From NCBI GenBank assembly GCA_964617695.1, contig CAZTYW010000002.1, positions 598 to 64,597 on the forward strand: a DNA stretch of 64,000 nucleotides. Reading direction: 5' to 3'. Below the pieces are notes generated by a model. The model worked only from the letters and a program-made list of their open reading frames with translations, made no database searches and had not been told where the DNA came from. This document shows positions 19,001 to 56,277 of the stretch, piece by piece; position 1 is the first letter of the stretch; each line of letters begins with the position of its first letter. The DNA is from an uncultured Dehalococcoidia bacterium (GTDB taxonomy: Bacteria; Chloroflexota; Dehalococcoidia; UBA2247; RBG-13-53-26). The translations under genes were made by a program, and so were the position numbers.

Positions 19001-19015
19001 CTTGCTCGTCCTTAC

Positions 19016-26101: not shown

Positions 26102-27371
26102 GTCTGTCCTCCGTCACCAGCTCCCCAAGCAGCCCACCGGCACGCTCGGCTGCCAGCCTTACTTCCAGCAATTGATTTGTCAGGTCTTCCTCGCTCTCGG
26201 TGAATACCCGAAGATAGTTGGCAGTGAGTCCGCTCCAGGTTGATTGCTCCATTCTACTCTCCCACAGCACTGTCATCCTCCGCCCTACGTGCCGTTCCAT
26301 GAAACGCTGCCTGCTTTGCCGGGCAAGCGCCAGCATTCTCTGGCTGCGCTGTCTCTTCACCCTTTCATCCACACGGTGCGGCATGGCTGCGGCAGCCGTG
26401 CCGGGCCGCATCGAATAGGGGAAGACGTGAATCCCGGCAAAGCCGATACTCTGGCAGAAGCGATAGCTCTCCTCAAACTCCCTCTCCCCTTCACCCGGGA
26501 AGCCAACAATGATATCGGTGGTGATGGCCAGGTCAGGGATTGCCGCCCTGGCAAGGGACACTGCCCTCTCGTAATCGGCAGCGGAGTACGGCCGCTTCAT
26601 TCTTTCCAGTATTACCTGGCTGCCGCTTTGCAGCGGCATATGGATGTGAGGGCAGACGCGTTCGTTAGCCCACAGCCCGAGCAGCGCCGGGGTCAGGTCC
26701 TGAGGCTGCAGGGAAGAGAGGCGCAAGCGCTCGATATCCGTCCTGTCCAGAATAAGATCAACCAGGTGTGGCAGGCCAAACCGCCCCTGTCCATTCCACC
26801 GGTAGGCTCCTACCCTGGTTCCGGTGAGGACGACTTCCTTGTAGCCTGACGCTGCTCTTACATCGACCTGATGCACGATTGTCTCGGGGGGAAGGCTGTG
26901 CTCCTTGCCTCGTGTGTACGGGACCACGCAGAAGGAGCAGAAGCTGTCGCAGCCCTCCTGGATCTTGACCAGGGACCGGGTCCGGGTTTGATAGTCCCTG
27001 CCGCGTCCTCCCTTTGCCGTGGCTCCGATGCTGCCTCTGGCCTCCAGTATGTCCACCAGCCTGTCCTTTTCCCTGTTTCCCAGGACCAGGTCTACCGCAC
27101 CCAGCCGGCCTAGCTCATTGCCTGCCCGCTCGGCGTAGCAGCCGATGGCCACCGTGGTCGCTTCCGGGTTGGCCCGCTGCGCTGCCCGCAGCAACTGGCG
27201 AGCCTTCCGGTCAGCCACGTGTGTGACGGTGCAGGTGTTCAGCACGTACACGTCGGCCTCTTTGGCTGACTCCGTCAGTTGATGACCTCTGTCGATGAGC
27301 TGGCGGGCAAGCGACTCGGTCTCCGCCTGGTTCAGCTTGCACCCCAGGGACTCCAGGGCGATCTTGCTCAT
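26094..27371 (-). CDS. MiaB/RimO/MtaB-family radical SAM methylthiotransferase
   Basis: N-terminal MTTase domain (…LGCKLNQAE…VYVLNTCTVT…), radical SAM core (…CDSFCSFCVVP…) and TRAM-like C-terminus. The start is taken at the internal ATG at 27369-27371. Confidence 0.85.
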   Translation of the reverse strand: MSKIALESLGCKLNQAETESLARQLIDRGHQLTESAKEADVYVLNTCTVTHVADRKARQLLRAAQRANPEATTVAIGCYAERAGNELGRLGAVDLVLGNREKDRLVDILEARGSIGATAKGGRGRDYQTRTRSLVKIQEGCDSFCSFCVVPYTRGKEHSLPPETIVHQVDVRAASGYKEVVLTGTRVGAYRWNGQGRFGLPHLVDLILDRTDIERLRLSSLQPQDLTPALLGLWANERVCPHIHMPLQSGSQVILERMKRPYSAADYERAVSLARAAIPDLAITTDIIVGFPGEGEREFEESYRFCQSIGFAGIHVFPYSMRPGTAAAAMPHRVDERVKRQRSQRMLALARQSRQRFMERHVGRRMTVLWESRMEQSTWSGLTANYLRVFTESEEDLTNQLLEVRLAAERAGGLLGELVTEDRHG

Positions 27372-27586
27372 TTCTGCATCCAGGTCCAATTCTATAATGG
27401 ATGCCGTGGGACTTCAAAGAGGGCCAGGGCTGAGCCAGCAGCCCCTTCGATGTTGGAGCAGGGACGGTGCTTGTGCACGGGACCAGAGCGGTGGTTGGGC
27501 GGCGGCCGCGCTTGCCCGACTTACCCACTTGGTATAAGATATAACCCTTGCGAGCACTGGACCCAGAATAGGCCAGGAGGGGCGGT

Positions 27587-35933: not shown

Positions 35934-37436
35934 ATGAAGATAAAGCGATGTATGGCAGGTCTAATCGTGGCCGCTCTACTGGTCCTGGCCATGGCGTTGC
36001 CGGGAGCGGCGCAGCCAGGCCCGGGTGATTCGGTGCCGGTGTGGCCCTCGAACGTGACGGCCGAACTGGCGCCCGGGGAGACCATGTGCGTCAACAAGAC
36101 TGTGACGGTCCCTACGCTTCTTCCCAAGGCTGATGTGGTCATATCCGTGGACCTGACGGGCAGCATGATTGAGGAGTTGACCAACCTCAAGACGGAGATC
36201 GCCAGCATAGTCGAGGCGCTCTCGAATGAGACTGCAGACCTGAACGTCGGGATAGTCTCCCATGAGGACTACCCGGAGTATTATGACTACTGCGGCTACG
36301 CAGCGCACTACGGGGACGCAACGAACGAGCCCTTCCGGGTTGATCAGGCCGTGAGTGGCGATTTTGCAGCCGCAAAGGCTGCCGTCCAGGCGATGAGTGC
36401 GGGAGGCGGAGCAGACCTCCCCGAATCGTATGCCCGGGTCATGTGGGAGAGTGGCCACTCTGACAATCTGATGGGCTACCGCGCCGATGCCCAGAAGATA
36501 TTGATCATGTTCCTGGATGACCGTCCGCACGACTGCGGTCTGGATACCGGACGCGACCCGGGACGTGACGCAGATGTCGGGACAGGGGACGACATCGACC
36601 TTGAGGACGATGCTATTCCAGCTATGCAGGCTGCCGGGGTGACATTGCTGGTGGTGTCCAGCGGTACTCATACAGCTCTGTGGAATGGGATCGCTGGGGT
36701 CACCGGGGGCTCTGCTGTGCAGATCAACGCCGATGGCACAGTGCCGGGTGGAATCAGCTTGACGGAGCTGATCCTGGACCTGGTAGCCGAGGTGGAGACG
36801 GACGTATGGTGGCAGGTAGCGGCTGATCCCGGCCTGAGCGTTGTGCTTACCCCCGCGGTACACTACGATGTGCCGGGCGGGAGCACCGTTCAATTCCAGG
36901 AGACGATAACGGTGGCCGAGGATGCAACCCCGTGCACTACTCTGGATGCTGTTGTCACCTTCTACGCCAACAGCTACCCTGAAGAAGGGGCGGTGATCGG
37001 CCGGCAATACGTCAGCATCAAGGTGGAGGAGGAGTGCCCTCCGCTCGTAGTATGGTGTGTTGAGAGCGTCAACCCGCACGGGCAAAAGGTGCCGCCTGCC
37101 GGCAAGACTACTATGCCGGGTCCGAAGGGCGGCCAGAACGAGGACGGTTTCTACCAGCTTCTGGCCTCCGGCGGCTGTGGCGAGCCAGAGGACATTGAAA
37201 TATATGTCGACTACGCCGGCGGCAGCTTCGGGCCGTTCGTGAACGGGACCGTCATCAAGTTCACCGAGGCACCTGGGGCGCCCCCCTCGCAGAAGAAGAT
37301 AGGCAGTGCCAATGGCCAGGCAGGCGCAGTGTCCTGGCACATCACCCTGCCTTCCGACCCGGTGATCAGAGCTGTTGACGTTGCTGGCAACGTGGCGACT
37401 TGCGACTGCTGTCTGGTGCCGCCTCCTCCCAAGTAG
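35934..37436 (+). CDS. secreted von Willebrand factor type A (VWA) domain protein
   Basis: 500 aa. N-terminal signal peptide (MKIKRCMAGLIVAALLVLAMALPGAA). MIDAS-like DLTGSM motif. Cys-rich C-terminal tail …CDCCLVPPPPK. AAAGGAGAGG Shine-Dalgarno. Confidence 0.7.
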   Translation: MKIKRCMAGLIVAALLVLAMALPGAAQPGPGDSVPVWPSNVTAELAPGETMCVNKTVTVPTLLPKADVVISVDLTGSMIEELTNLKTEIASIVEALSNETADLNVGIVSHEDYPEYYDYCGYAAHYGDATNEPFRVDQAVSGDFAAAKAAVQAMSAGGGADLPESYARVMWESGHSDNLMGYRADAQKILIMFLDDRPHDCGLDTGRDPGRDADVGTGDDIDLEDDAIPAMQAAGVTLLVVSSGTHTALWNGIAGVTGGSAVQINADGTVPGGISLTELILDLVAEVETDVWWQVAADPGLSVVLTPAVHYDVPGGSTVQFQETITVAEDATPCTTLDAVVTFYANSYPEEGAVIGRQYVSIKVEEECPPLVVWCVESVNPHGQKVPPAGKTTMPGPKGGQNEDGFYQLLASGGCGEPEDIEIYVDYAGGSFGPFVNGTVIKFTEAPGAPPSQKKIGSANGQAGAVSWHITLPSDPVIRAVDVAGNVATCDCCLVPPPPK

Positions 37437-37473
37437 GTGGGACCAGGGGCAGACACCCAGCACGTACGGACAG

Positions 37474-37512
37474 GGAGGGGATGCCAGACCGGCATCCCCT
37501 CCTTCGTTTGCC
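37474..37512 (+). terminator. rho-independent terminator after the VWA gene
   Basis: Perfect 12-bp stem GGAGGGGATGCC / GGCATCCCCTCC with loop AGACC, followed by TTCGTTTGCC. Confidence 0.6.
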
Positions 37513-37567
37513 TGCGGGGCCTGGGGTAGGGGGGGTGTTTCTGGCTCGGGTGCCGCTGGCGGCGAGT

Positions 37568-37606
37568 TTTCGATTCGAGAGTGCAGTGTGCTATAATCTA
37601 GCTAGA
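37568..37606 (+). promoter_or_regulatory. candidate promoter of the GRE operon: extended -10 TGcTATAAT (37589-37597) with weak -35, immediately followed by the perfect 10-bp palindrome TCTAGCTAGA (37597-37606)
   Basis: Read directly from the sequence. Located 32 nt upstream of the GRE GTG start, between the upstream terminator and the AGGAGG Shine-Dalgarno (37616-37621). Confidence 0.45.
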
Positions 37607-37628
37607 GACGCCCTCAGGAGGTTTAGCC

Positions 37629-40031
37629 GTGGACACTGCGATCAAAGACCTGAAGGATAACGTAATCATCAAGGCGGTCAAGGGCCTTTACAGGGGTCAA
37701 CAGAGGGTGGACGAGGATGCCGGCTACAGGGCAGAGGTGAAAGTCTGCCTGGAGCGGGCCCGGCTGATCACAGAGTCCTACAAGGAGACCGAAGGTGAGC
37801 CCATGATTACCAGGAGGGCCAAGGCCCTCAAGAAGATCCTGGAGAACATGACTATCTACATCCAGGACAAGGAGCGCCTGGTGGGCAACCTGGCCCGGGA
37901 CCAGTTCTCCCTGCCGCTTTATCCCGAGCTCTACTGGAGATGGCTGGAGAAGGCCCTGGACAATGAGTACCAGCACCTGCTGGACGATGAGGGGAAGAAG
38001 GAGCTCAAAGAGATTAACAAGTACTGGGTCAGGCTGTCTGTGCACGGCATGGAGCGGAACCTGGTGCCGCCCAGCCTCAAGCCGTTTACGCGCTACACGC
38101 CGGTGACCGTCTTCAGCTATACGTGGGACATGGTGTTGCCCAACTACGAGAAGATACTCAAGGTGGGCCTCAGGAGCATCGTAAAGGAGGCAGAGGACAG
38201 GCTGAGGGAGATCGAGTCAGACGTCACAATGCATGCCAGGGAGTACCTGGAGCAGAAGAGGTTTCTCCAGGCCGCCATAATGTGCCTGGAGGCGACTATC
38301 ACTTTCTCCAGGAGGTACGCTGCGCTGGCCAGGGATAAGGCAGCGAGTGCCACCGATCCGGAGGAGAAGGCCAGACTGGAACGGATTGCCGAGATATGCG
38401 ATTGGGTGCCGGAAAACCCGGCCAGGACGATGCACGAGGCTATGCAGTGCTTCTTCATAATCCATTTGATCGTCGGTTTTATCGAGCTGCCTTCGGTAGG
38501 CTGCGGCGTGAGACTGGATAAGGTCATGTACCCGTACTATAGGAAGGACATGGATGAGGGCAGGCTGACCAAGGAAGAGGCCCTGAACCTGATAGAGTCG
38601 CTGTGGATCAAGTTTGAGGAGATGGGATTCATCCATCCACCCAGGTTGTTCGGGTCGGCTGGTGGGGGGCTGGCCTGGCAGAACGTCACGCTCGGTGGAG
38701 TGGATGAGAAGGGCAACGATGCCAGCAACGAGTTGTCCTACATGATTCTGGATGCCACCAGGGAGTTGCATTCTGTTCAGCCTCCCCTGTGCTTCAGGTA
38801 CCACGACAAGATACCCAGGGACCTGGTGTTGAGGGCGGTAGATACCCAGAGGACGAGGGTAGCCCAGCCAGCCTTCTTCAATGACAAGATGATGATTCCC
38901 TACCTGACGGAGAAGGGTATACCTCTGGAGGACGCCCGGGACTACGCCTACAGCAACTGCATGTCCTGGACGATTCCGGGAAAGAGTATGGTCTACCGGC
39001 AGGGTATGGGTATGTTCTCGTTCACCAACTGCCTGCAGTTGGCGCTTAACCAGGGCAAGGACTGGCGCACCGGCCAGCAGTTTGGCTGCCCCACTCCCGA
39101 TCCGCTGACCTTCAAGTCGGTCGATGAGATCATAGATGCGACCATGGAGCAGTACCGCTTCTTCTTTGAGAAGCAGACCTACATCAACAATTTGGCGGAT
39201 GCCCTCTACGAGGAGTACCTGCCCCGGCCGCTCATTTCGGCGCTGGTGGACGACTGTATCCAGAAGGGCAAAGACTGCCGGAGGTGGTACTACCATCACC
39301 GCAACTACGTGATGCCTACCGGGGTGAACAACGCAGCCGACTCGCTGGCGGCCATAAAGAAGTTCGTGTTTGAGGAGAAGAAGGCCAGCATGGCTGAGCT
39401 CCTCGAAGCTTTGAAAGGCAACTTCGAAGGAAACGAGGAGCTGCGTCAGAAGCTACTCGGTGCCCCCAAATTTGGCAACGACCAGGACTATGTCGACAAC
39501 ATCGCCAGAACGCTTCACGTGCGGATAAAGGAGGAGACGCAGAAGTATAAGACGTATTACGGGTATCCTTTCGACGTTGACGGTACCAACGCGTCGGTGG
39601 GCTACTACCTCGGCATCGACGTTGGCGCTACGGCCGAGGGCCGCAAGGCCGGAGAGCCGCTGCACGACGGCAGTATCTCGCCGGTGCAGGGCCAGGACAA
39701 GAAGGGGCCTACCGCCGTGCTCAACTCTGTGGCCAAGGTCGATCCGCTGCGCTCTGCCAACCACCTGTTCAACCAGAGGTTTGCGCCTGAGTTCCTGGAG
39801 GGACCCAACCGGGACATCTTTGCCAGCTACCTCAAGACCTGGGCTGATCTGGGAATTCACCACATCCAGTTCAACGTCGTAGACCCGGAGATACTTCGGG
39901 ATGCTCAGGAACATCCCGAAAGGCATGCCGACCTGATAGTCAGGGTGGCGGGATACGCGGCCTACTTCGTGGACTTGACCAGGTCTCTTCAGGATGACAT
40001 TATCGCCAGGACTGAGCAGCGCTTCTCCTGA
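37629..40031 (+). CDS. glycyl radical enzyme (pyruvate formate-lyase superfamily; non-PFL clade), GTG start
   Basis: 800 aa. C-terminal glycyl-radical motif …IVRVAGYAAYFVDLTRSLQDDIIARTEQRF. The active-site Cys loop reads …DYAYSNCMSWTIPG… (single Cys, no CC, no C-x-E). AGGAGG lies 7 nt upstream of the GTG. Confidence 0.9.
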   Translation: MDTAIKDLKDNVIIKAVKGLYRGQQRVDEDAGYRAEVKVCLERARLITESYKETEGEPMITRRAKALKKILENMTIYIQDKERLVGNLARDQFSLPLYPELYWRWLEKALDNEYQHLLDDEGKKELKEINKYWVRLSVHGMERNLVPPSLKPFTRYTPVTVFSYTWDMVLPNYEKILKVGLRSIVKEAEDRLREIESDVTMHAREYLEQKRFLQAAIMCLEATITFSRRYAALARDKAASATDPEEKARLERIAEICDWVPENPARTMHEAMQCFFIIHLIVGFIELPSVGCGVRLDKVMYPYYRKDMDEGRLTKEEALNLIESLWIKFEEMGFIHPPRLFGSAGGGLAWQNVTLGGVDEKGNDASNELSYMILDATRELHSVQPPLCFRYHDKIPRDLVLRAVDTQRTRVAQPAFFNDKMMIPYLTEKGIPLEDARDYAYSNCMSWTIPGKSMVYRQGMGMFSFTNCLQLALNQGKDWRTGQQFGCPTPDPLTFKSVDEIIDATMEQYRFFFEKQTYINNLADALYEEYLPRPLISALVDDCIQKGKDCRRWYYHHRNYVMPTGVNNAADSLAAIKKFVFEEKKASMAELLEALKGNFEGNEELRQKLLGAPKFGNDQDYVDNIARTLHVRIKEETQKYKTYYGYPFDVDGTNASVGYYLGIDVGATAEGRKAGEPLHDGSISPVQGQDKKGPTAVLNSVAKVDPLRSANHLFNQRFAPEFLEGPNRDIFASYLKTWADLGIHHIQFNVVDPEILRDAQEHPERHADLIVRVAGYAAYFVDLTRSLQDDIIARTEQRFS

Positions 40032-40102
40032 GGTTTTGAGCCAAGCAGAGTAAATCCGGTCCAGGGTGGCATAGAACAAAACGACAGAAGGGGGTCAAAC
40101 GT

Positions 40103-41017
40103 ATGGAGCTAAAGGATGTTCGGGCTATCGACACCATGTGCCGGGCAGGATATGCCGGGATCGTGACCGAGGAGGAGTGGAAGGAGACCTGGAGCTTCTA
40201 CGAGTCTCAGGCCTGTGTCAAGGGCACCTTCGGCGGCGTGCTGAAAAAGCTGGGTGTGTCGGAGGAGGACGGCTGGAAGGTCGTCGCCTCTCAGTACAAG
40301 GCTTCGGTCGACGACATGATCAAGGAGATGGACGAGGTGGGGGTGGACAAGGCCTTCGTAGACCAGCAGTTGATATGGTCCAGGCACGAGAACAAGCTGG
40401 TGACTGGCTTCACCGTGGATCGAATTGCCGAGATAGTGGACAAGGGCAAAGGCAGGATCGTTGGTGGTGCCGGCTATAACCCCTTCCGGATAGAGGAAAG
40501 CCTTAAGGACCTGGAAAGGGCGGTCAAGGAGTGCGGCTTCAAGTACGTGTGGTTTCACCCCAATAGCTTTGGCGTCAAGGCCAGCGATGCCAGGTGCTAC
40601 CCGCTGTACGCCAAGTGCATAGAACTGGACATACCAGTCAGTTTCCAGACGGGGCACTCGGCGGAGCCCCTGCCCAGTGAAATAGGCCGTCCAATGTACG
40701 CCGACGAAGTAGCTATGGATTTCCCCAATCTGAAGATGGTCCTTACCCACACTGGTTGGCCGTGGATCGGTGAGTGGTGCTCCATGATCTGGCGCCACCC
40801 CAAAGTCTACGGGAACATCGGCGCCTACTATCCTGCCAGCCTCCATCAGGAGACGATTGACTTTCTCAGTGGGCCGATTGGCAGGAGCAAGGTGTTCTGG
40901 GCTACGAATGGCTTCGGGCTGACGCGCTGCAAGCAGGAGTTCGTCGACCTGCCTATGAAAGACGCCAACAAGCAGGCTATTCTCAGGGACAACGCCGTAG
41001 CCGTGTTCAAGCTATAG
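40103..41017 (+). CDS. amidohydrolase-2 (PF04909-like TIM-barrel metal-dependent hydrolase / reversible decarboxylase family) protein
   Basis: 304 aa. …WFHPNSFG…FQTGHSAEP…MVLTHTGWPW… is typical of the ACMSD / LigW / gamma-resorcylate-decarboxylase family. Sits 71 nt downstream of the GRE. Confidence 0.8.
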   Translation: MELKDVRAIDTMCRAGYAGIVTEEEWKETWSFYESQACVKGTFGGVLKKLGVSEEDGWKVVASQYKASVDDMIKEMDEVGVDKAFVDQQLIWSRHENKLVTGFTVDRIAEIVDKGKGRIVGGAGYNPFRIEESLKDLERAVKECGFKYVWFHPNSFGVKASDARCYPLYAKCIELDIPVSFQTGHSAEPLPSEIGRPMYADEVAMDFPNLKMVLTHTGWPWIGEWCSMIWRHPKVYGNIGAYYPASLHQETIDFLSGPIGRSKVFWATNGFGLTRCKQEFVDLPMKDANKQAILRDNAVAVFKL

Positions 41018-41084
41018 TGCGGCAGGCAGAGGGGGATTCGCTCAGCCGAACTCTCCCCGACCGAAGACATTGTACAACAGCATT

Positions 41085-41125
41085 GCCCCTTCCACTTCTG
41101 AAGTGGAAGGGGCAGATTTTATCTC
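41085..41125 (+). terminator. rho-independent terminator ending the GRE-amidohydrolase unit
   Basis: Perfect 11-bp stem GCCCCTTCCAC / GTGGAAGGGGC with loop TTCTGAA, then AGATTTTATCTC. Confidence 0.6.
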
Positions 41126-41179: not shown

Positions 41180-42268
41180 TCAGGACGACTTGTCGGATTC
41201 TGATCTACCCCCCCAGTAGGAATATGGCTGCAGCCTGTAGTAAGTCTTGAACTTCTCCCAGCGATAGTACAGTCCTCTCGGCTGGAACATCATGAACAGG
41301 ACGATTACCAGACCAAACACTATGAGCCCCATGGCCACGGGAAGCTGCCGGGCCCAGTCGGCAGGGAGATTGTCGACGAGGAATGGGTTTATGTAGTCAT
41401 TCAGCATAACCTCTAGAAGTCCGAGAAAGGTGGCACCCATGTAGACCCCGGCCGTGCTTCCCCAGCCGCCGATTATCAACATCCCTACGTACCACATGGA
41501 GTTCATAAGCTCGAACTGGTTTGGATTCACCCTGAGCTGAGAGTAGGCCCACAACCACCCTGCCAATCCGGCAAAGACGCAGCCGATAAAGAAGGCCAGC
41601 ATTTTGTAGCGAAATATGGCGATCCCGCTGACCTCAGCGGCCAATTCGTTGTCCCGAATGGCCACGAAGGCCCTCCCGGCGGCAGTCCTCTGGATATTCT
41701 TGGCGAAGAAGGTGGCCACGATCATGATCACCATGGTCAGGGCATAGAAGGCATTGCGATTGGCGAAGTCGATGGGACCCAGCCTGAGCGGCTCCAGACC
41801 CAGGCCGGAGTACCCGCCGGTGACCGAAGTGTAGTGTTCCACGAACCAAAGGATGATGAAGCTGGCGGCCAGTGTCGATATAGCCAGATAGAATCCTCTC
41901 AGCCTGAAACAGGGCAGTCCAAACAGCAGCCCCACGACGCCAGCAGACAACCCGGATATGGGCAGGCAAAGCCATCCGTTCCACCCGGACCTGACGGTAA
42001 GAATGGCAACCGCGTACGCTCCCACAGCCATGAACGCGGCGTGTCCGATGGAAAATTGCCCGCACAGCCCCGTCAACACGTGCAGGCCGAGGACTGCTAC
42101 TATGGTTATGCCCAGCATGCTCAGCCAACTGACCCAGTAGGAACTTGCAAACAAGGGGATGCTGAACAGGACTGCGGTTCCCAGGGCCAGCAGGACCCAT
42201 TGCGTCCGTGTACGCATGATGGCCATGTCTGACTCGTACCTGGTGTTGAAGAGCCCGCCGGGCAGCAC
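41180..42268 (-). CDS. branched-chain amino acid-type ABC transporter permease (LivM family)
   Basis: 362 aa, polytopic, LivM-like. Confidence 0.85.
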   Translation of the reverse strand: MLPGGLFNTRYESDMAIMRTRTQWVLLALGTAVLFSIPLFASSYWVSWLSMLGITIVAVLGLHVLTGLCGQFSIGHAAFMAVGAYAVAILTVRSGWNGWLCLPISGLSAGVVGLLFGLPCFRLRGFYLAISTLAASFIILWFVEHYTSVTGGYSGLGLEPLRLGPIDFANRNAFYALTMVIMIVATFFAKNIQRTAAGRAFVAIRDNELAAEVSGIAIFRYKMLAFFIGCVFAGLAGWLWAYSQLRVNPNQFELMNSMWYVGMLIIGGWGSTAGVYMGATFLGLLEVMLNDYINPFLVDNLPADWARQLPVAMGLIVFGLVIVLFMMFQPRGLYYRWEKFKTYYRLQPYSYWGGRSESDKSS

Positions 42269-42270
42269 TC

Positions 42271-43158
42271 TCAGATCCTCCGTATTCCTTTCAGACCGAA
42301 GAGACCGTGCGGTCTGATAATCAGAATAGCTACCATCAGAATGTATGGCAGTAGCTGCCTGAATCCGCTGACGTGCGGATCGATGTAGGTTCCGGCCAGG
42401 CTTTCTGTCAGGCCGATCACGATGGCGCCGATAAAGGCGCCGGGGATCGATTCAATCCCGCCTAGCAGCACCACAGGCAGAGCCCTCATGATGGCGAAGC
42501 CTCCTATGTTGCTGTTCACGACGAACATCGACCCCAGGAGCATGCCCCCAAGTGCGGCCGACAGGCTGCCGACCACCCAGGATAGGGCGAATATCCTCTT
42601 GACGTTTATGCCGAGGCTTTGACTGATGAGGTGGTCTTCGGATACGCATCTCATCGCCAGGCCGCTCTTGGTGGAGCGGAAGTACGACACGAATGCCAGG
42701 AACATGACCGTAGCCACGATGAAGGAAAACAGCCAGGTGTAGGGGAAGCTGACGTTTCCGATGCCAAAGCTGCCAGACGGAAAGATCTCGGGCATGACTC
42801 TGGGCGTGCCTCCCCAGATCAGCATGGCAGCCCCGTGAATAACCGAGAAGCCCAGTACCAGGGTCAGGATGAAGGTTGTCAGCCCGCTTTGCCCTATCAT
42901 GGGTCTCATTATCAAACGGTCTATGCCCAGGCCAATCAACACGCTGGCAAGCGCCAGTATTCCCAGGGCAGCCGCAAGATGCAACCCCAGTGTGGCCAGC
43001 AGCCACCAGAGGAGATAGGCCAGCAGCATCAAAATGCCGCCGTGGGCCAGGTTGAACACCTTGGTGGCCTTGAACACCACTACCACACCGAGTGCAATTA
43101 GAGCGTAGACTCCGCCGAGTAACACTCCTTCAATAGACGCCCGTAGAAAAGTGTCCAT
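42271..43158 (-). CDS. branched-chain amino acid-type ABC transporter permease (LivH family)
   Basis: 295 aa, LivH-like. Its stop abuts the livM start. Confidence 0.85.
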   Translation of the reverse strand: MDTFLRASIEGVLLGGVYALIALGVVVVFKATKVFNLAHGGILMLLAYLLWWLLATLGLHLAAALGILALASVLIGLGIDRLIMRPMIGQSGLTTFILTLVLGFSVIHGAAMLIWGGTPRVMPEIFPSGSFGIGNVSFPYTWLFSFIVATVMFLAFVSYFRSTKSGLAMRCVSEDHLISQSLGINVKRIFALSWVVGSLSAALGGMLLGSMFVVNSNIGGFAIMRALPVVLLGGIESIPGAFIGAIVIGLTESLAGTYIDPHVSGFRQLLPYILMVAILIIRPHGLFGLKGIRRI

Positions 43159-43175
43159 TCTCGCTTACTAGCTCG

Positions 43176-44366
43176 CTACTCCAGCATCAGCTTCTCTTCG
43201 GGTGCGACTGTGACCACACCCCCTTGCGTCGAACCAAAGACCTGCTGCAGGTCGATGCCGATGGCGCGGAAGAACCTGACGGTTTCTGGGGATGCTCTCT
43301 TGCCGGCGGCGTAGACCAGTCTTGCCCTGTTGAAGCCATGCTTGTCTCTCAGTGGCCGGAAGACCAGGGCTTCGGCGATGGCGTGGCGGAATCTCTTGGG
43401 CAGGCCAACGCGGTCATTGCCCATGGATTCCTCCGCTACCTCCTGGCCAATAGACAGACTCCAGTTGAACAACCTCCTTTTCAGCCGGGTGCCGTCTGCT
43501 ACATTGGTCTGAATTGCCGAGGCGATGTCCGCCCATACCCGGGGTGGATAGACCAGGACGTTTGGGGATATCTCTCTAGAGTCTTCAGGAGCGGTCTCCA
43601 CGCGCTCGGCAAAGTTGAGCTTCTGACCTTTGACCAGACAGGCGGTGAACCCCAGTGTCTGTTCGAACAGCCAGCCGGGAGTGATGACCGATACGTAGTC
43701 GTCGGTGTCGTACACCGGGTTCGACGCCAGGACGTTTTCCAACGAGGAGATCAGGAACCCGTGCGTGGCCGGCACCACCTTCAGCGAGTCGTTGGCTCCC
43801 AGGGCGAAGATTATCATCGCCAGGTCATCGCCCCTGCCATGAGCCATTTTTCGCTCGAATTCTCCCGGGTGGTTCCGCTCCCGTTCTTCTCCCAGCTTGA
43901 TAACTTCAGCCAGGCTGATCAGGATCGGGTTGTTGTAGTGCCGGAGTCCCTTCTCGTTCCAGTACACCACTCTCTGCAGCGAGGGGGCACCGTCCTTTAC
44001 CTCCAGCAGCTTGTCGACCTGCTCCTGGTCCTGGGCCAGTACGAACTTTGGCTGCGCAAGAAGCATGAGACCTTTAGTGTCCTCCGCAGACCCTGCGGGG
44101 TTGAGCCCGGTGACAATTCCCCTGGCTGCCAGTACAGCCAGCTCACACCAGAACCACTCGGGGTTGCTGTCGGCCAGTATGGATACACCGCTTCCGGCTT
44201 CGAGCCCCAAACTTGCCAGGCCTCCGAAGATGGCCTTCACCTTGTGGTAGCAGTCTTCCCAGGTATGCTCTCTCCAGACGCCGTACTCTTTCTTGCGCAG
44301 GGCCACGCGGCTACTGCCCCACTGCTGGCAGTTACGAAAGAGCAGCTTGGGGAACGTATCTTCCAC
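43176..44366 (-). CDS. AMP-binding (acyl-CoA synthetase-like) N-domain protein, apparently degenerate
   Basis: 396 aa resembling the large N-domain of ANL adenylating enzymes. The phosphate-binding loop position reads MIIFALGANDSLKV instead of (T/S)SGTTGxPKG. The ~110-aa C-terminal ANL domain is absent. Confidence 0.65.
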   Translation of the reverse strand: MEDTFPKLLFRNCQQWGSSRVALRKKEYGVWREHTWEDCYHKVKAIFGGLASLGLEAGSGVSILADSNPEWFWCELAVLAARGIVTGLNPAGSAEDTKGLMLLAQPKFVLAQDQEQVDKLLEVKDGAPSLQRVVYWNEKGLRHYNNPILISLAEVIKLGEERERNHPGEFERKMAHGRGDDLAMIIFALGANDSLKVVPATHGFLISSLENVLASNPVYDTDDYVSVITPGWLFEQTLGFTACLVKGQKLNFAERVETAPEDSREISPNVLVYPPRVWADIASAIQTNVADGTRLKRRLFNWSLSIGQEVAEESMGNDRVGLPKRFRHAIAEALVFRPLRDKHGFNRARLVYAAGKRASPETVRFFRAIGIDLQQVFGSTQGGVVTVAPEEKLMLE

Positions 44367-44503
44367 GTTCGGCAGCCTAGAATACCCTTTTCGCTATCAT
44401 TTGTGGCCTGTCGGCCCACTCGTGGGGGCGAGCCCGCGCCCCCACCGGCCCCTTCCTCCCCCGGCTAATTGCGGGGCATTGGCGCCATTCCAGTCATCAA
44501 CTT

Positions 44504-45556
44504 TCAGGATTTCAATTCCCCTGTCACCGACTGCAGCACGCTCCTGGCTTCGGCAACGATTCGCTCGATCAGCTCCTGCACGCTGGGCACGTCGTCTATC
44601 CTGCCACAGACCTGGCCGCTGGGCATCACTCCGAAATCTGTGTCACCTTCGATCATCGCTCTCACAATGCGCACGCCGCCCGCGGCCAGATGCCCCAGTT
44701 CCGAGATGGAAGCTTGGTACTCTTTCCTCATGCTCCAACCGGCGACTATGAACCGCCACCAGGAAACCCCCAGCATTCTTCGGACTTCAAGCGCGCCCGA
44801 TATCTTTTCTGTCCAGGATAGGCTCCTGCCTTCACCCAACGTGTCGGTGAACCTGTTGCTGATCACCCTCAATGGTGTGCCAGTGATGGCAGGCGTGACC
44901 ACGGTGTCGTTTTCGCTTGAGGCAAGGTATCGCTGCTTGACGCTGTCGGGGATAGGACTCTCCTTGGTCACTGCGAACCTGGTGCCCATGGCAATGGCTT
45001 CGGCCCCCAGAGCAAGGGCTGCCACAAGGCCCCTGCCATCGCAGAAGCCTCCTGCGGCCACCACCGGGATCTGGACCTTGCCTGTGATGAGCGGCAACAA
45101 CACCATAGTGGTGACTTGCCCGACGTGTCCCCCTGCCTCAGACCCCTGCACCATGACGGCATCAGCCCCGTCCTGCTCGGCCCGGACGCCGTGCCTTACA
45201 GACCCAATCATGGGCATTATCTTGATGCCGTGTCCCTTAGCTGCCCCAATCAGCCATTTGGGGTTGCCTCTGGAGTGGCAGATCAGAGGCACCTTCTCCT
45301 CGATGAAAACCTCGGCCAGCCTTTCATAACCCGGATTGCCCGCTATGAGGTTGACACCAAACGGCTTGTCAGTCAGGTCTCTAACAGCCCTGATGTCCTG
45401 TCTGATTACATCGGGTGCAAGCCGGCCTGAGGCCAGGATTCCGAGGCCGCCGGCATTGGAGACTGCTGCCACAAGCTGCGGGACTCCAACGAAATTGGCT
45501 GGTGCCTGAATGATAGGATACTTTATTTTCAGTAGATCAGTTATTCGAGTTCTCAT
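44504..45556 (-). CDS. nitronate monooxygenase / 2-nitropropane dioxygenase family (FMN-dependent) protein
   Basis: …KYPIIQAPANFVGVPQLVAAVSNAGGLGILA… NMO-family motif. Start taken at the internal ATG at 45554-45556. Confidence 0.8.
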   Translation of the reverse strand: MRTRITDLLKIKYPIIQAPANFVGVPQLVAAVSNAGGLGILASGRLAPDVIRQDIRAVRDLTDKPFGVNLIAGNPGYERLAEVFIEEKVPLICHSRGNPKWLIGAAKGHGIKIMPMIGSVRHGVRAEQDGADAVMVQGSEAGGHVGQVTTMVLLPLITGKVQIPVVAAGGFCDGRGLVAALALGAEAIAMGTRFAVTKESPIPDSVKQRYLASSENDTVVTPAITGTPLRVISNRFTDTLGEGRSLSWTEKISGALEVRRMLGVSWWRFIVAGWSMRKEYQASISELGHLAAGGVRIVRAMIEGDTDFGVMPSGQVCGRIDDVPSVQELIERIVAEARSVLQSVTGELKS

Positions 45557-45584
45557 CCAACGGACGATCTGCGGTACGCTGAAC

Positions 45585-46304
45585 CTATTCTTTTTCTCTC
45601 CAAACCCCGTCCACGAAGACCTTCTTCTCTTTCTCTTTAACGCGCACCCCACGAGAGGTGGTCAGGAATTCCTCGGGCATTGCGACCCCGGCCTCTGCTG
45701 CATATTTTGTCATTCTGGCAATCTCGACGACTTTCAAGGCCACGTTCCTCACACGCGCCATACCGAGCTTGTCATCCAGTACACCGTTCTTCAGATAGGC
45801 CGGCCTTCTGCCGAAGGCCGCTTCGCTGGCCACAGCCCAGCCCCTGGCTACCACAAAACCCGAGCCTCTGCCAACAACTTCCAGGTCTTCCAGCGCCCGC
45901 TCCATCCCCATGCCCAGGAAACCTACGGTGAGCAGGCCGGACACCTTGTTCCTGAAGTTGTAGGTGAAGAACTGGTGGTACCTCCATCTGGATATAAGTG
46001 TAGCCATGATCGGAGCGGCGCCAATATTCCATACGGGTGCTCCAAGGATCAAGCCATCACTTGCTATCATTCTATCGAATACCGCGTTGGCATCGTCCTC
46101 TATTCTGCACGGCGCCATGTTCTCTATGCACCACTGGCAATGACGGCAGAGTGCGATCTGCTTGTCGGCCAACGTGATGAACTCGGTTTCCACGCCTGGT
46201 ATCTGGGAGGCAACGTTCAGCGCCTCCTGCACCATTGTGTCACAGTTTCCGCCCTTGATGGGAGTCGCGGAGATCCCCAAAACTCTGACGTTGACAGGTA
46301 TCAT
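45585..46304 (-). CDS. NADPH-dependent FMN reductase / iron-sulfur flavoprotein-like protein
   Basis: Flavodoxin-like N-terminus (…VRVLGISATPIKGGN…) with a compact Cys cluster CRHCQWC…C. Start taken at the internal ATG at 46302-46304. Confidence 0.7.
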   Translation of the reverse strand: MIPVNVRVLGISATPIKGGNCDTMVQEALNVASQIPGVETEFITLADKQIALCRHCQWCIENMAPCRIEDDANAVFDRMIASDGLILGAPVWNIGAAPIMATLISRWRYHQFFTYNFRNKVSGLLTVGFLGMGMERALEDLEVVGRGSGFVVARGWAVASEAAFGRRPAYLKNGVLDDKLGMARVRNVALKVVEIARMTKYAAEAGVAMPEEFLTTSRGVRVKEKEKKVFVDGVWREKE

Positions 46305-46487
46305 AGATCGGGTTTCCCTCCGTTCCGAGCTTCTTCTGGTCAATTCACGCCTTCGTGGCGCCATCTGTTCCCAACTTGCGGCTGCACTCGGGTCGCCTGT
46401 TAAACCGACGCGGACTCCCATGTCCATAGCCCGCACCGGCCATCTCTGCTATTGCCGGCCCTCCGCCCACAGCCGCGGGCCCTCTAT

Positions 46488-47336
46488 CTATTGCTTCGGC
46501 TGTGCGGGGCGGGAGAATTCCTTAGGAGGCCCCTTCTTGGCCAGCTCGCAAACAAGGGCAGCAATCGGGCTGGACTGGTTCAACTCGTGCCCGATGGCCA
46601 GAGCGTAGCTGAGGTCCTTGGCACCAACGTAGTAAGTGGGCGGCGGCGGATCCGTCCACATCGACTTGAGCCATCCCCAGTTTTGCACCGAGAAACTGTT
46701 CCCGGAACCTATCTTGATGTGCTCGACGAGCAAGTCTTCACCGGCGCCGTTCTTCATACCCCAGGCTATGGCTTCGGCGGCCACCCATGCGTTGGTTATG
46801 GCGCACATGTTATTCACCAGTTTCACGATCTGGCCCATTCCAAGATCGCCACAGTAGGTGATCCTGCCCATTCTCTCCAATACGTCGCGATACTTCTCAA
46901 GCCTGTCTTTATCGCCCCCGACGCTAATTCCCAATGTTCCCGCCTCGGCCCCCATGCGGGCTCCAACCACCGGGGCATCAAACACGTCCGCCTTCTTGGC
47001 CTTGGCCGCCTCTGCCACTTTGTTGCAGAAGGTAGGAGAAAACGTGCCCATGAGGAGAATGCCGTCGCCTTCTTTCACCCCTTCCAGAAGACCGTCAGGC
47101 CCAAAGACCACCTCCTCAGCCTGTTTGTCGTTCTGCACCATGATGATGGTGGCCTCAGATGACCGGGCAACCTCTCTGGGTGTCTTGACCTCCGTGGCTC
47201 CGAGGCCCTTCATTTCCTCAATGGGCGCTCGCCTTACGTGACCGCAAACCGTCGTCTCGAAACCGCCGGTTACCACCCTCTTCGCCATAGGAAGTCCTAT
47301 ATCTCCCAGGCCAATGAATCCAACCTTCACCGTCAT
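46488..47336 (-). CDS. 3-hydroxyisobutyrate dehydrogenase-like NAD(P)-binding dehydrogenase (paralog 1)
   Basis: 282 aa. N-terminal Rossmann fold VGFIGLGDIGLPMAKR. HIBADH / 6PGDH NAD-binding family. Confidence 0.8.
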   Translation of the reverse strand: MTVKVGFIGLGDIGLPMAKRVVTGGFETTVCGHVRRAPIEEMKGLGATEVKTPREVARSSEATIIMVQNDKQAEEVVFGPDGLLEGVKEGDGILLMGTFSPTFCNKVAEAAKAKKADVFDAPVVGARMGAEAGTLGISVGGDKDRLEKYRDVLERMGRITYCGDLGMGQIVKLVNNMCAITNAWVAAEAIAWGMKNGAGEDLLVEHIKIGSGNSFSVQNWGWLKSMWTDPPPPTYYVGAKDLSYALAIGHELNQSSPIAALVCELAKKGPPKEFSRPAQPKQ

Positions 47337-47524
47337 TCTTGATTCCTCCTTTCCCGGCCGTTCTTCACCAAGTATCCCGATATGTCAATGCCTCATTGAA
47401 CCGACACCACCACGAGCCACCTTCGGCTCGAAAGACACCGGTGCCATGGTGACGTCGCTTCGCGCGGCTTGGCGCATCCCCGGGCATGTTTCCGCCGGCT
47501 CTGCCGCACAGCGCTCTATGTGTC

Positions 47525-49687
47525 TTACTTCCTCTTGTACCTCATGAACTTGTGCTCATCCAGCTCAATGTAGTTCTGAGGGGGGACGAGCAGCGTTGTC
47601 ATGGTATGCTCGACGATGGCCGGCCCGTCGACCCTGTTGCCCGCTTCCAGCAAGTCCTGCTCCCACAGGTCGAAGGTCACCCACTGCCCGTCGAAGAAGG
47701 CATCACGCTGACCTTTGTAGGCGTTCTTGGGCGGTTCTTTGCCCTGAGGCGGATGCGTGGGTATAATGGGCTTCGGTTTCTTGGCCACCGCCTCTACATA
47801 GACCTCGGTTATCTGGTAGCCTGACTCTGGATACCGGGCTCCGGCGGGATAGATGCTGGTATAGGTCTTCTCAAAAGCGCCTATCACTTTGTCGAGGTCC
47901 TCGAGACTCTGTACTCTGGCTACGTCAACAGGAACCCCCCAATTCGACATCTGACCTATGTATCGGCACGATATCCCACGCCTGAAGCTCACGTCCTCGG
48001 CTACGATGCCTTCAGCTTCGAGTTCCGTGAGCCCCCTCTCTTCCAGCTCTTGCCAGGCCTGGCTCAGAACGCTGCCCTGGAATATTTTGATCTCGTCGGG
48101 CATCTGCGGAGTCAGGAAGAAGGTGACGGCCTTGTCATAGCGATGGAAGTAGTCAGCAGCAGCCACTCCAAAAGAGGAAAACACTGCCGCCCAGGGTACC
48201 ACGATAACCTCGTTGAAGTGGATGGCGCGCTCCAGCCCCCACAGGTGGAGAGGACCGGCAGCTCCGTAGACGAGTAGAGTGAACTCAGCCGGGTTCAACC
48301 CTCTCGACAGAAGCACACCGTTGATGTGGTCGGCTACTTTGGCGTGCAGCAAGTCCAGGATCTTGCTCGACACGTCGTAGACGTCCTGGCCAAGTGGCTT
48401 GGCCACCCTCTCTGTCAACTCATGCTCCGCCCTGTCGCGGTTGACCTTGATGGTTCCTCCGAGATAGTAGTCCGGGTCCAGGTACCTCATGGTCAGGTCA
48501 ATGTCGCCGATCGTCACCTGGTCCGAGGCGTACATGGTGCCCAGGTCGGCCCTGACACTCTCGGGCCCGATGGTAATCCGCTTCGTCACCGGGTCTGCGT
48601 GTACCACGTGGCTGCAGCCGGCGCCGAGACAGTCGATGGCGATCATGGGCATCCTCAACCGGTGGCCGGAAAACTCCGGCTCCTTGTTCACCGGCAGAAG
48701 CCGGTTGGCAATCAGACCAATGTCGCAGGTGGTACAGCCCAGGTCCCAGCAAACCAGGTTGGGGATATTCAGAAAGTCGGCGATGAACTTCCCGCCGAGC
48801 AGGCCTCCAACCGGACCTGAGATGGCCGCCTCGGCCAACTTGGGATAGCGGATCGTTGCCGCCGCTCCGTAACCCAGCAAGGTCAACAACTCGTGGTTGT
48901 AGCCTTCTTTCCTGGCTGCCTCCTCCACCAGGAACAGCTTCCTCCTGGCGATCTCTGCTATGTAGCACTGAATAAGAAGGGTCTTCAGTCTTTCGTTCTC
49001 GTTGGGGACGGAACACATTTCGTGAGAGGCGACCACAGGCACGTCAAGGCCGCGCCTCTCCACCATCTCCCTGGCGATCTGGGCAATCCGCATCTCGTGG
49101 GCAGAGTTTGCATACGATGCGAGGGTTAGAATGCCAATTACCTCTACCCCGGAGTCCAGAAGTTCGGTGACTGCCTGCACTGCCTCGTCCTCCACCAGCG
49201 GAATGACGACCGTGCCGGGGAAGTAGTGGTGCTCCATGTAGTAGCTGCCAACCGAGATTCGCTCGGTCACCTCCTTGATGTTCTCAGGGTTCACCATCCA
49301 GGGCGTGTGTTCATGCAATTGCTGGTGCAGTATGTCCTCGTAGGACTGGCCTATCCAGGTGAGGCCCCTTTCCATGATGGGCATGTCGGCGAATCCCCTG
49401 GTTACGATCAAACCCACTTTGCTCCCACTCTGGGTTACCAGGATGTTGACCATCGACGTCCCGGTGTATGTGGATGACCGCGCTGCCTGATGAATCTGGG
49501 CCGTGGTCATTTCCCAACGTCGGGCCGCGTCTTCCAGCGAGCCAAGGTAGCTGATCGCCTCGTCTTCGGGGTGAGTCAGGAACTTCCCGGTAGAAAACGC
49601 TCCGTCCTCGTCGACCAGGAAGCAGTCTGTCATGGAACCGCCCGCGTCCTGGGCGATTATGTACCTCTCTTCTACCTTGTCCGCCAT
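47525..49687 (-). CDS. hydantoinase A / acetone carboxylase beta-subunit-like protein (ATP-binding)
   Basis: ~720 aa from the internal ATG at 49685-49687. Hydantoinase/oxoprolinase N-terminal plus HyuA domains. Confidence 0.8.
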   Translation of the reverse strand: MADKVEERYIIAQDAGGSMTDCFLVDEDGAFSTGKFLTHPEDEAISYLGSLEDAARRWEMTTAQIHQAARSSTYTGTSMVNILVTQSGSKVGLIVTRGFADMPIMERGLTWIGQSYEDILHQQLHEHTPWMVNPENIKEVTERISVGSYYMEHHYFPGTVVIPLVEDEAVQAVTELLDSGVEVIGILTLASYANSAHEMRIAQIAREMVERRGLDVPVVASHEMCSVPNENERLKTLLIQCYIAEIARRKLFLVEEAARKEGYNHELLTLLGYGAAATIRYPKLAEAAISGPVGGLLGGKFIADFLNIPNLVCWDLGCTTCDIGLIANRLLPVNKEPEFSGHRLRMPMIAIDCLGAGCSHVVHADPVTKRITIGPESVRADLGTMYASDQVTIGDIDLTMRYLDPDYYLGGTIKVNRDRAEHELTERVAKPLGQDVYDVSSKILDLLHAKVADHINGVLLSRGLNPAEFTLLVYGAAGPLHLWGLERAIHFNEVIVVPWAAVFSSFGVAAADYFHRYDKAVTFFLTPQMPDEIKIFQGSVLSQAWQELEERGLTELEAEGIVAEDVSFRRGISCRYIGQMSNWGVPVDVARVQSLEDLDKVIGAFEKTYTSIYPAGARYPESGYQITEVYVEAVAKKPKPIIPTHPPQGKEPPKNAYKGQRDAFFDGQWVTFDLWEQDLLEAGNRVDGPAIVEHTMTTLLVPPQNYIELDEHKFMRYKRK

Positions 49688-49691
49688 TCTT

Positions 49692-50261
49692 CTATGCCTC
49701 CTTTGCCCACTGGGCAGGCCTATCCAGCGTCTTGTCCTGGTACCAATCGGGGTTCTCGTCTCCCAGCGGTGCGCCCAACCACTCCCGATAGAACGTGTCC
49801 AGATCGGGCAGCATCTCGAATATCGGCGGATAGCCGATGGGAACAACCTCGACCCCTAGCTGGGCAAAGCATCCGGGACAGTAAAACTCCCTTATTTCTA
49901 CCAGATGCGGGTCGTTGACCGCTTCCTCTACGGGCATTACCACCGCCATCTCTTCGTGCGTCCTCCTCCCCAGGATCCGGCAGCTCAGCTTCCAGTTGAT
50001 GCGATAGTCGCCGAATTCCTGTCCGCAGTCGCACTTGACCACACGGCCCCCGCTGTCCTTGGCCACGATATAGAGGTGGTCCGAGATGCGGAGAAGTATC
50101 TTGTCCTGCCACGGAACGCGTTCCTGCAGCACCTCAAGGTACTTCCAGAACCGCCGTTTGTCTTTGGGAGACAGGCGCATGAGTCTCTTTGCGTCCTCCC
50201 AGGGCAGCTTGCCGTCTACCAGAAGCTTCAGGTTTTCCTTGGTAGCAATGTCCTCTGACAT
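49692..50261 (-). CDS. acetone carboxylase gamma-subunit-like zinc protein
   Basis: 189 aa. …VKCDCGQEF…EFYCPGCF… Cys4 pattern and size match AcxC-type gamma subunits. Lies between the two large subunit genes. Confidence 0.7.
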   Translation of the reverse strand: MSEDIATKENLKLLVDGKLPWEDAKRLMRLSPKDKRRFWKYLEVLQERVPWQDKILLRISDHLYIVAKDSGGRVVKCDCGQEFGDYRINWKLSCRILGRRTHEEMAVVMPVEEAVNDPHLVEIREFYCPGCFAQLGVEVVPIGYPPIFEMLPDLDTFYREWLGAPLGDENPDWYQDKTLDRPAQWAKEA

Positions 50262-50270
50262 CTTCCCTCC

Positions 50271-52451: not shown

Positions 52452-52462
52452 AGCGCCTCCTT

Positions 52463-53686: not shown

Positions 53687-53783
53687 TTCTCCTTCAGCCT
53701 CCTTATCCTTCACGCGGCGGAGCAAGCTCCGCCGCGTGAGCAGTCATAGGAAACCTCCCAGGTCGGTCCTCCGTAACCGGGCC

Positions 53784-55010: not shown

Positions 55011-55132
55011 TTCTCCTCCTTTCTGCTCCTCTGCTCCGTTTGCCGGGCTGCAAACGCCCAGAGGAAGCCCTGTTGATGACGTAAGCTCGTCCCCATTGCC
55101 GCTATGGCTACCGGCATCCCTGTGCCGGTGGT

Positions 55133-56236: not shown

Positions 56237-56277
56237 AGTGCTTGCCACCGCCCATCAAATCTGCCGCAGGTAGAGAG

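Follow-up and report, generated by a model that had tools for sequence, protein, structure and literature searches.

A 64,000-nucleotide stretch of DNA from an uncultured Dehalococcoidia bacterium (the window hereafter; GC content 59%) carries on its + strand a gene for a glycyl radical enzyme (GRE) of 800 aa, followed after a gap of 71 nt by a gene for a 304-aa protein of the Amidohydro_2 family (AH). Upstream of this pair and on the opposite strand lies a gene for a 260-aa enoyl-CoA hydratase (ECH) of the crotonase type. The coordinates of these and other features are listed in Table 1. In the comparisons below, clade A comprises the GRE of the window and its close relatives (75-83% identity), clade B is its sister clade (60-63% identity), and both belong to a much larger superclade of GRE homologs.

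The genomic contexts of the relatives were obtained from exact-protein look-ups and from one scan of 185,579 species-representative genomes (80 loci), and the loci (L001 and following) were annotated from tblastn matches to a ten-protein panel. The order GRE then AH was conserved in at least 12 distinct relatives, being found in the window (and in L010, of identical sequence), L001/L002, L003/L004, L015-L019, L022, L030 and L034. The two genes were 52-335 bp apart in clade A, and the proteins moved in step across the clade-A loci, with 75-83% identity for GRE and 77-86% for AH. Orthologs of ECH (73-89% identity) were arranged divergently 185-250 bp upstream of the GRE gene in L015, L016, L018 and L030, and were located farther upstream in L001, L003 and L046. 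The genes inserted between ECH and GRE were those for a 500-aa protein in the window, HicAB in L001 and regulators in L003. The 500-aa protein was detected by tblastn in the window and the identical L010 only and is outside the conserved module. In NCBIfam, ECH gave generic crotonase matches only, all below cut-off. An earlier reading of this DNA, made from the sequence only, had described the GRE-AH pair; the comparison of loci adds ECH as a conserved third member of the module.

Some genomes hold more than one copy of the GRE gene. In the metagenome-assembled genome (MAG) CAVRFM01, the GREs of L014 and L015 were about 80% identical, one copy being accompanied by ECH and AH and the other by neither. 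Other same-MAG pairs with about 80% identity were L016/L020 and L030/L043, where loci L020 and L043 were truncated.

That GRE and AH form one unit between two hairpins, with an extended -10 promoter of its own, had been proposed in the sequence-only reading and was confirmed by the sequence features found here. Both open reading frames (ORFs) and both strong flanking hairpins were recovered, and a consensus scan placed no terminator in the 71-nt gap between the genes. The upstream hairpin lies 38 nt past the stop codon of the preceding gene, with UUCGUUUG behind it. The stretch that holds it, 37468-37520, folded at -33.9 kcal/mol (z -4.75; 0 of 200 shuffles did as well). Because its T-run is weak, it was not called by a simple terminator scan. 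The downstream hairpin, with a 15-bp stem by the scan (41083-41115) and an AUUUUAU tail, was called by the same kind of scan. Its folding energy was -26 kcal/mol on both strands, with z-scores of -4.5 and -5.0, and it faces the convergent gene for an ABC permease as well.

The promoter element TGCTATAAT was the sole TGnTATAAT in the 64 kb with both strands counted. It was found at equal spacing from the ribosome-binding site (RBS) in at least nine clade-A loci (L001, L015, L016, L018, L019, L021, L024, L046 and L083), the clade-A form being TGnTATA[AC]T with its position kept in nine loci. In five clade-A loci a Fur-family gene ended right before the GRE gene and replaced the TGnTATAAT promoter; such a gene may provide metal- or peroxide-sensing control of an oxygen-sensitive enzyme. 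The perfect 10-bp palindrome TCTAGCTAGA noticed in the sequence-only reading is present, and the idea that it is an operator was rejected: perfect palindromes of 10 bp number 65 in the window, where chance would give 62, and this one was conserved in no relative compared. Recent horizontal transfer of the unit was also rejected, as its GC and GC3 resemble those of the neighbouring genes.

Table 1. Features of the GRE-AH locus, its surroundings and related loci; positions refer to the window unless a locus is named.
Feature	Position	Strand	Basis or remark
Glycyl radical enzyme (GRE), 800 aa, GTG start	37629..40031	+	Pfam, NCBIfam, AlphaFold2 (AF2)
Amidohydro_2 TIM-barrel protein (AH), 304 aa, BB4693 type	40103..41017	+	Pfam PF04909, AF2
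Enoyl-CoA hydratase (ECH, crotonase), 260 aa	34666..35448	-	Pfam ECH_1, 209 bits
500-aa protein, hydrophobic N-terminus	35934..37436	+	Weak VWA match, 21.9 bits (cut-off 23.8)
Likely terminator of upstream gene, strong hairpin with weak U-tract	37474..37512	+	Folding
Extended -10 promoter element TGCTATAAT	37589..37597	+	Sequence, conserved position
10-bp palindrome TCTAGCTAGA, probably functionless	37597..37606	.	Palindrome count, relatives compared
RBS AGGAGG, 7 nt ahead of the GTG start	37616..37621	+	Sequence; kept in all relatives
Intrinsic terminator separating the unit from the convergent ABC permease gene	41083..41125	both	Scan and folding
Catabolic and transport array, 18 kb	41180-58862	opposite	Between AH and RecO
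B12-binding-domain radical SAM protein	12405-13847		Inside longer open frame 11973-13847
UPF0004/MiaB-type methylthiotransferase	26094-27389		
Fur-family genes upstream of GRE	L003 9599-9988; L014 467-922; L025 5530-5922; also L020, L022		

The first gene product was assigned to the GRE superfamily by Pfam (PFL-like, 605 bits; Gly_radical, 97 bits), and the AF2 model (pLDDT 92.8) confirmed the architecture of a ten-stranded barrel with a C-terminal glycyl radical domain. The radical glycine is Gly775 in the Gly loop LIVRVAG775YAAYFVDL...QDDIIARTEQRF, and the thiyl cysteine is the single Cys444 in the Cys loop DYAYSNC444MSWTIPGK. Both residues were invariant in 16 clade sequences (56-100% identity) and in 40 superclade sequences. 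The fold search did not discriminate between GRE classes, all solved GREs matching similarly with TM-scores of 0.88-0.94 at 30-35% identity.

Sequence profiles were more informative on the side of the family to which the enzyme belongs. TIGR01774 (PFL2/glycerol dehydratase family) scored 608 bits and missed its cut-off of 678, whereas TIGR01255 (pyruvate formate-lyase, PFL) scored about 111 bits against a cut-off of 994; as the two adjacent cysteines are absent, the enzyme is not PFL/TdcE. Scores and cut-offs of the NCBIfam equivalogs were 543/1000 for HpsG, 516/1100 for HypD, 462/1000 for HpfG, 458/1050 for CutC, 426/1100 for the decarboxylase IAD and 327/1150 for the decarboxylase HPAD, so that no equivalog cut-off was reached and all were short by a factor of about 2 or more. 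The best sequence match in the PDB was the B12-independent glycerol dehydratase (508 bits, about 35% identity), followed at 369-444 bits by CutC, IseG, AAD, HypD, PD, HpsG, BSS, IslA, YbiW, PflD, HplG and MASS, with HPAD (239 bits) and PFL (115 bits) as low scorers. These scores place the GRE on the PFL2/dehydratase/X-succinate synthase (XSS) side of the family and, as far as profile and sequence matches can tell, outside every characterised clade compared. Both points are in agreement with the sequence-only reading.

Below the relatives at 75-83% identity, which came from Chloroflexota and Dehalococcoidia MAGs, there was a group at 60-62% and then hundreds of sequences at 45-56% from Dehalococcoidia, Desulfobacterota, Nitrospinota, Actinomycetota and Jordarchaeaceae. 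No GRE relative in a large protein collection carried a functional name, and none of the solved structures and NCBIfam equivalogs compared is a member of the superclade with a characterised function. In L037 (about 9982-19900; Dehalococcoidia UBA2777), four GRE paralogs with 48-51% identity to the query were arranged in tandem on one strand. Other MAGs had two or three GRE copies spread over contigs, the family expanding within Dehalococcoidia.

The Cys loop was then compared with those of characterised enzymes. C444-M-S446 was aligned by HMMER with the loops GCVEP, GCVET and GCIET of glycerol dehydratase, HypD, YbiW and PflD, and Ser446 is thus located at the position of the C-x-E glutamate, bearing out the earlier description of a single thiyl cysteine without this residue. 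C-x-E was found in none of 112 full-length GRE homologs. The loop reads SNCMSW in clade A, including the query, and NNCM[SA]W in clade B; NNCM[FYVW]P, E[AG]CMRW, TGCVYIE and others occur elsewhere in the superclade. According to a 2026 review, C-x-E is retained by all C-O, C-N and C-S eliminases and by three isomerases, and the only non-PFL classes without it are the X-succinate synthases and two decarboxylases (PMC13450708). A 1,2-eliminase or isomerase that works with another general base, or on a substrate needing none, would suit glycerol dehydratase as the best match in sequence and fold (TM 0.92) and the many relatives in which a Glu precedes the Cys by two residues (E-[AG]-C-M-R-W). We consider this very unlikely, since the characterised eliminases and isomerases all keep the motif that the homologs lack, the Cys is preceded in the query's clade by Ser or Asn and not by Glu, and the acyl-CoA context, with no microcompartment genes, does not suggest the use of diols, amines or sulfonates.

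For comparison with benzylsuccinate synthase (BSS), metagenome contigs were scanned with the pattern of bssA primer 7772f, and full-length BssA reference genes were obtained from L190, L173 and L153; a tblastn search of plasmids had found no bssA, just PFL, CutC and GDH-type genes. The numbering of L190 agreed with the literature at 16 of 16 residues (E189, Y197, S199, I384, F385, L391, L492, C493, R508, W613, N615, I617, Q707, V709, L711 and G829; PMC4848970). The C-M-S triplet was common to the query and to the BssA loop N-V-L-C493-M-S-P-G, a correspondence with the benzylsuccinate synthase loop that had not been noticed in the sequence-only reading; the flanks differ from those of BSS, with N before and W after the triplet in the query. 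Shortly past the loop, Arg457 (C+13) was present without exception in clades A and B and in 107 of 112 homologs overall, and Arg508, the fumarate anchor of BSS, is at C+15. When gap penalties were lowered, pairwise alignment matched the two arginines, which MAFFT had left unpaired. Positions lining the pocket in BSS varied widely among the subclades of the superclade while Arg457 stayed, and positions 168, 343, 560, 562 and 564 differed between clade A and its sister clade B.

A conserved arginine and a loop without the glutamate would also suit a Cys-loop variant of the arylacetate-type decarboxylases (AAD and phenylacetate decarboxylase, which likewise lack C-x-E), which would release CO2 from an acid held by Arg457. 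The AAD loop GGC-V-L also has no Glu, AAD (7e7l) scored 432 bits, in line with the other GREs, and AAD needs no small subunit (PMC13450708). We regard such an activity as unlikely, because the known GRE decarboxylases end fermentations and are not set among ECH, acyl-CoA dehydrogenase (ACAD) and CoA-transferase genes, the IAD and HPAD models are far below their cut-offs, and the loop is C-M-S as in BSS and not C-V-L or C-x-Q.

The partner AH matched Amidohydro_2 (PF04909) with 98 bits against a cut-off of 26, and its AF2 model (pLDDT 94.2) matched family members with a Foldseek probability of 1.0; NCBIfam contained no family for it. The best solved relative was the uncharacterised BB4693 of Bordetella bronchiseptica (PDB 3irs; E 1.5e-14, TM 0.70-0.75). 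The next folds were the γ-resorcylate, 2,3-dihydroxybenzoate and 5-carboxyvanillate decarboxylases (TM about 0.65, 15-19% identity), and the similarity to LigW and LigJ was E ~1e-3 at best. Residues invariant over 118 homologs included D10, E34, W92, S93, Y166, Y169, K171, Q182, E188, D201, H216, E224, W225, R275, E279 and N297.

In decarboxylases of the ACMSD/LigW type the metal ligands are an HxH or ExH motif after strand 1, a His after strand 5 and an Asp after strand 8. With strands mapped on the AF2 secondary structure, AH had neither HxH nor ExH past strand 1, where its motif is A-I-D10-T-M-C-R. Position 185 was His in 82 and Gln in 36 of the 118 homologs, and at strand 8, where the decarboxylases would have Asp, Asn269 was Asn in 107 and His in 10. 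Only D10 and H216 were invariant among the candidate metal ligands. Since the ligands at strand 1, position 185 and strand 8 are not kept, AH is without the metal site that defines these decarboxylases. The family assignment made in the sequence-only reading stands, and the assignment to LigW/ACMSD-type decarboxylases is not supported.

Relatives of AH with 55-60% identity occurred without any GRE in clusters of the β-oxidation type, often beside ECH. For example, the relative in Desulfoscipio gibsoniae follows a 260-aa crotonase in a cluster of thiolase, ACAD, 3-hydroxyacyl-CoA dehydrogenase and ECH genes. In a Smithellaceae MAG a crotonase again precedes it, and the surrounding genes encode ACAD, acyl-CoA ligase and CoA-transferase. 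In Halorientalis, an aerobic haloarchaeon, it precedes two ACADs and a thiolase, with SDR and acyl-CoA ligase genes nearby, and in a Chloroflexota MAG it lies ahead of a DUF35-thiolase pair. In L215 (1-607, 1883-2842), a 58%-identical relative of AH was located at a distance of 1.3 kb from genes of a true XSS, namely BssC_TutF and the N-terminal part of an α subunit that was 48-50% identical to BssA; the AH relative is followed there by two ACADs.

These contexts bear on the pairing suggested in the sequence-only reading, namely a GRE with a reversible (de)carboxylase of the ACMSD, LigW or γ-resorcylate type that would act on an aromatic or hydroxy-acid substrate and feed the downstream genes. 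The membership of AH in Amidohydro_2, the decarboxylases as the nearest solved folds after BB4693, and an arginine in the GRE that could bind a carboxylate are in its favour. We nevertheless judge it quite unlikely, because the metal ligands are missing across the AH family, the similarity to LigW/LigJ is slight, the relatives of AH are found in acyl-CoA β-oxidation clusters and not in aromatic-acid ones, and the downstream array runs towards the unit and is not conserved with it. The proposed aromatic or hydroxy-acid substrate found no direct support, and the idea that the unit feeds the array was not upheld.

The contexts of more distant GREs were of a similar kind. In the superclade at 43-52% identity the GRE gene was often followed by an activase gene. 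In L008, L055, L056, L058, L061 and L067 it was followed by genes for two family-III CoA-transferases and an ACAD (bbsEFG-like), and ECH and NMO/FabK-like genes were frequent neighbours of distant GREs. In L008 and L064 a distant AH gene (38% and 26% identity, respectively) was located just upstream of the GRE gene. The GRE P0032 (56% identity) had no activase and was followed directly past its stop codon by an OMP-decarboxylase-family gene (L006 10064-10852, L007 4757-5545). A gene of the OMP-decarboxylase family is also present in the window (2526-3356), where it adjoins an ACAD gene (1006-2136).

No PflA-type activase was detected in the 64-kb window by a six-frame CxxxCxxC scan and by Pfam analysis of the large ORFs, which yielded housekeeping and catabolic genes, as the sequence-only reading had reported for the activase. 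The two in-ORF CxxxCxxC radical SAM sites belong to the B12-binding and the MiaB-like enzymes (Table 1), the sole radical SAM genes of the window. Both were rejected as the activase on account of the wrong domain architecture and because they are not syntenic with the GRE in relatives. In clade B, a radical SAM activase with a ferredoxin insert was encoded 13-190 bp past the GRE gene in 10 of 10 loci (in L005 at 3390-4313), and no AH was found there. AH of clade A thus stands in the slot that the activase occupies in the sister clade.

The absence of an activase from all clade-A loci and the presence of AH in its slot could mean that the activase was lost and that the GRE is a relic that can no longer be activated, its adjacency to a β-oxidation gene pair (ECH and AH) being meaningless; the AH family indeed functions without a GRE elsewhere, including in an aerobic haloarchaeon. 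This is highly improbable in view of the conservation observed. Gly775, Cys444, Arg457 and the whole radical domain were invariant over the 16 clade sequences, the GRE was full-length in all loci, its promoter and RBS were conserved, and GRE and AH diverged in step over at least 12 loci. Moreover, activases that act in trans are known, as TdcE and GrcA of E. coli use PflA.

Taking loop, context and conservation together, we tentatively favour, at somewhat less than an even chance, a three-gene module of uncultured Dehalococcoidia in which ECH is divergent from a GRE-AH operon and a trans-activated, non-eliminase GRE feeds a CoA-dependent route. The GRE, activated by a PflA-type enzyme that is assumed to be encoded elsewhere in the genome, would perform carboxylate-anchored, non-eliminative C-C chemistry of the X-succinate synthase (hydroalkylase) type or a relative of it, and not dehydration, deamination or desulfonation. 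Its acid product would enter a CoA-dependent, β-oxidation-like route. AH, resembling ThnN and BB4693, would work with the crotonase as a hydratase, a hydrolase or a C-C cleaving enzyme and not as a Zn/Mn decarboxylase. Each of the rival explanations is less consistent with the loop, the context or the conservation than this one.

Several observations weigh against the module as proposed. The fumarate ligands of BSS are not kept, the replacements being Y197 to W166, S199 to M168, W613 to Y560, N615 to M562 and Q707 to T653, and the equivalence of Arg457 and Arg508 depends on gap placement, as MAFFT put R508 in an adjacent 3-residue insertion. Small subunits are present in every characterised XSS (PMC13450708). 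Small ORFs of the BssB/BssC type, which the sequence-only reading had raised, were absent from the window and from every clade A and B locus when BssB and BssC profiles were run by hmmsearch on the window and L001-L093 (all six-frame ORFs, minimum length 25 aa), with matches in the controls L215 and L041 only. No activase was encoded within ±10 kb of the GRE in any clade-A relative. Three close GRE paralogs (L014, L021 and L025) had no adjacent AH or ECH. The conserved core contains no CoA-transferase, ligase or ACAD, and the link to CoA would rest on ECH and on the contexts of the AH family elsewhere. The likeness of AH to ThnN and BamU is one of family and neighbourhood.

A more far-reaching explanation, which we regard as rather unlikely, is a new class of GRE, subunit-free and with a BSS-type loop, that acts on CoA-linked substrates and has AH as an obligatory second catalyst, or else obtains its radical from a source other than a dedicated PflA-type activase. 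For instance, an enoyl- or acyl-CoA that the conserved crotonase supplies or removes could undergo radical addition or be cleaved.

The surroundings of the module consist of a conserved frame and a variable slot. L001 shares the DnaB-loader, M48 and M20 genes on the upstream side and the RecO, RecR and DnaX genes on the downstream side, and the downstream part is also shared by L003. The array between AH and RecO encodes a branched-chain-type ABC transporter, an AMP-binding enzyme, NMO, an FMN reductase and two 3-hydroxyisobutyrate-dehydrogenase-like (HIBADH-like) proteins, together with hydantoinase A/B-type proteins (acetophenone carboxylase- or caprolactamase-like), a family-III CoA-transferase and a two-component system. 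The same slot contained only an NMO gene in L001 and glyoxalase, DUF35 and thiolase genes in L003. The array is a variable slot and no fixed partner of the GRE-AH unit. Near the end of the window, an ORF of 294 aa (63037-63921) matched the profile of the NiFe-hydrogenase large subunit over its C-terminal third only (334-508 of 508), and the gene may be truncated or split.

Neither the enzyme family nor the fold of either protein is new. As the sequence-only reading had supposed, the pairing of a GRE with an AH was not described in the literature searched. Nor did that literature describe the order GRE then AH with a divergent crotonase, an AH in place of the activase, a BSS-type loop in a subunit-free enzyme, or a GRE-AH module in Dehalococcoidia. 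With the pairing kept in about a dozen relatives, the GRE-AH unit is a credible lead to unassigned anaerobic chemistry. Whole GRE clades remain unannotated (2026 review, PMC13450708), and since that review stresses how many clades await assignment, the module is a useful target but no surprise yet.

The locus offers a tractable target in a very large environmental superclade that extends over Dehalococcoidia, Desulfobacterota, Actinomycetota and Asgard archaea, with MAGs from cold-seep, hydrothermal, tar and groundwater samples among its sources. Metagenomic surveys usually tag such genes loosely as 'assA/bssA-like' or 'pflD'. If the enzyme performed C-H activation or C-C coupling, biocatalysis would gain a hydroalkylase far simpler than BSS or MASS, and the turnover of hydrocarbons and organic acids by subsurface Chloroflexota would be inferred differently from metagenomes. 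The module could also give the first functional handle on amidohydrolases of the ThnN/BamU/BB4693 type. If the enzyme were an ordinary decarboxylase or dehydratase variant, the result would be a routine extension of the family.

Among the known systems, glycerol dehydratase (1r8w) resembles the GRE as its top sequence match, with TM 0.92-0.94, a single Cys and the same length class. The GRE differs from it and from the other C-x-E enzymes in having Ser446 for the Glu and Asn443 for the Gly before the Cys. BB4693 is like AH in that it also has neither the strand-5 His nor the strand-8 Asp; at 20% identity no function can be transferred from it. Sister clade B (P0024-P0030) shares with the query the identity given above, the N-N-C-M-[SA]-W loop, Arg457 and the length, and its loci (L005, L026-L029, L033, L036, L079, L080 and L082) differ in having the activase and no AH.

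BssA/TutD and the other X-succinate synthases have in common with the GRE the fold (TM 0.92), the C-M-S triplet, an Arg shortly past the loop and pocket residues that are variable and hydrophobic between subclades, and superclade relatives are located beside bbsEFG-like genes. In contrast to BssA, the GRE is only about 31-33% identical, has not kept the fumarate ligands Y197, S199, W613, N615 and Q707, has no β/γ subunits and no adjacent BssD-type activase, and is 60 residues shorter at the N-terminus, where the RCRWKHASAGEF segment is absent. For AH the closest parallels are ThnN and BamU, amidohydrolases encoded beside crotonases and ACADs in anaerobic CoA-ester pathways, to which it is likened by family and context; AH relatives at 55-57% identity have neighbourhoods of this kind. 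ThnN (N47_E41360) is encoded next to the crotonases ThnL and ThnM in an anaerobic naphthalene operon and is a candidate ring-opening hydrolase, and BamU of the Geobacter benzoate cluster is similar to it, the function of both being unassigned (PMC12016498, PMC6849830). Neither has a reported GRE neighbour, and in this respect AH, encoded directly behind a GRE, differs from both.

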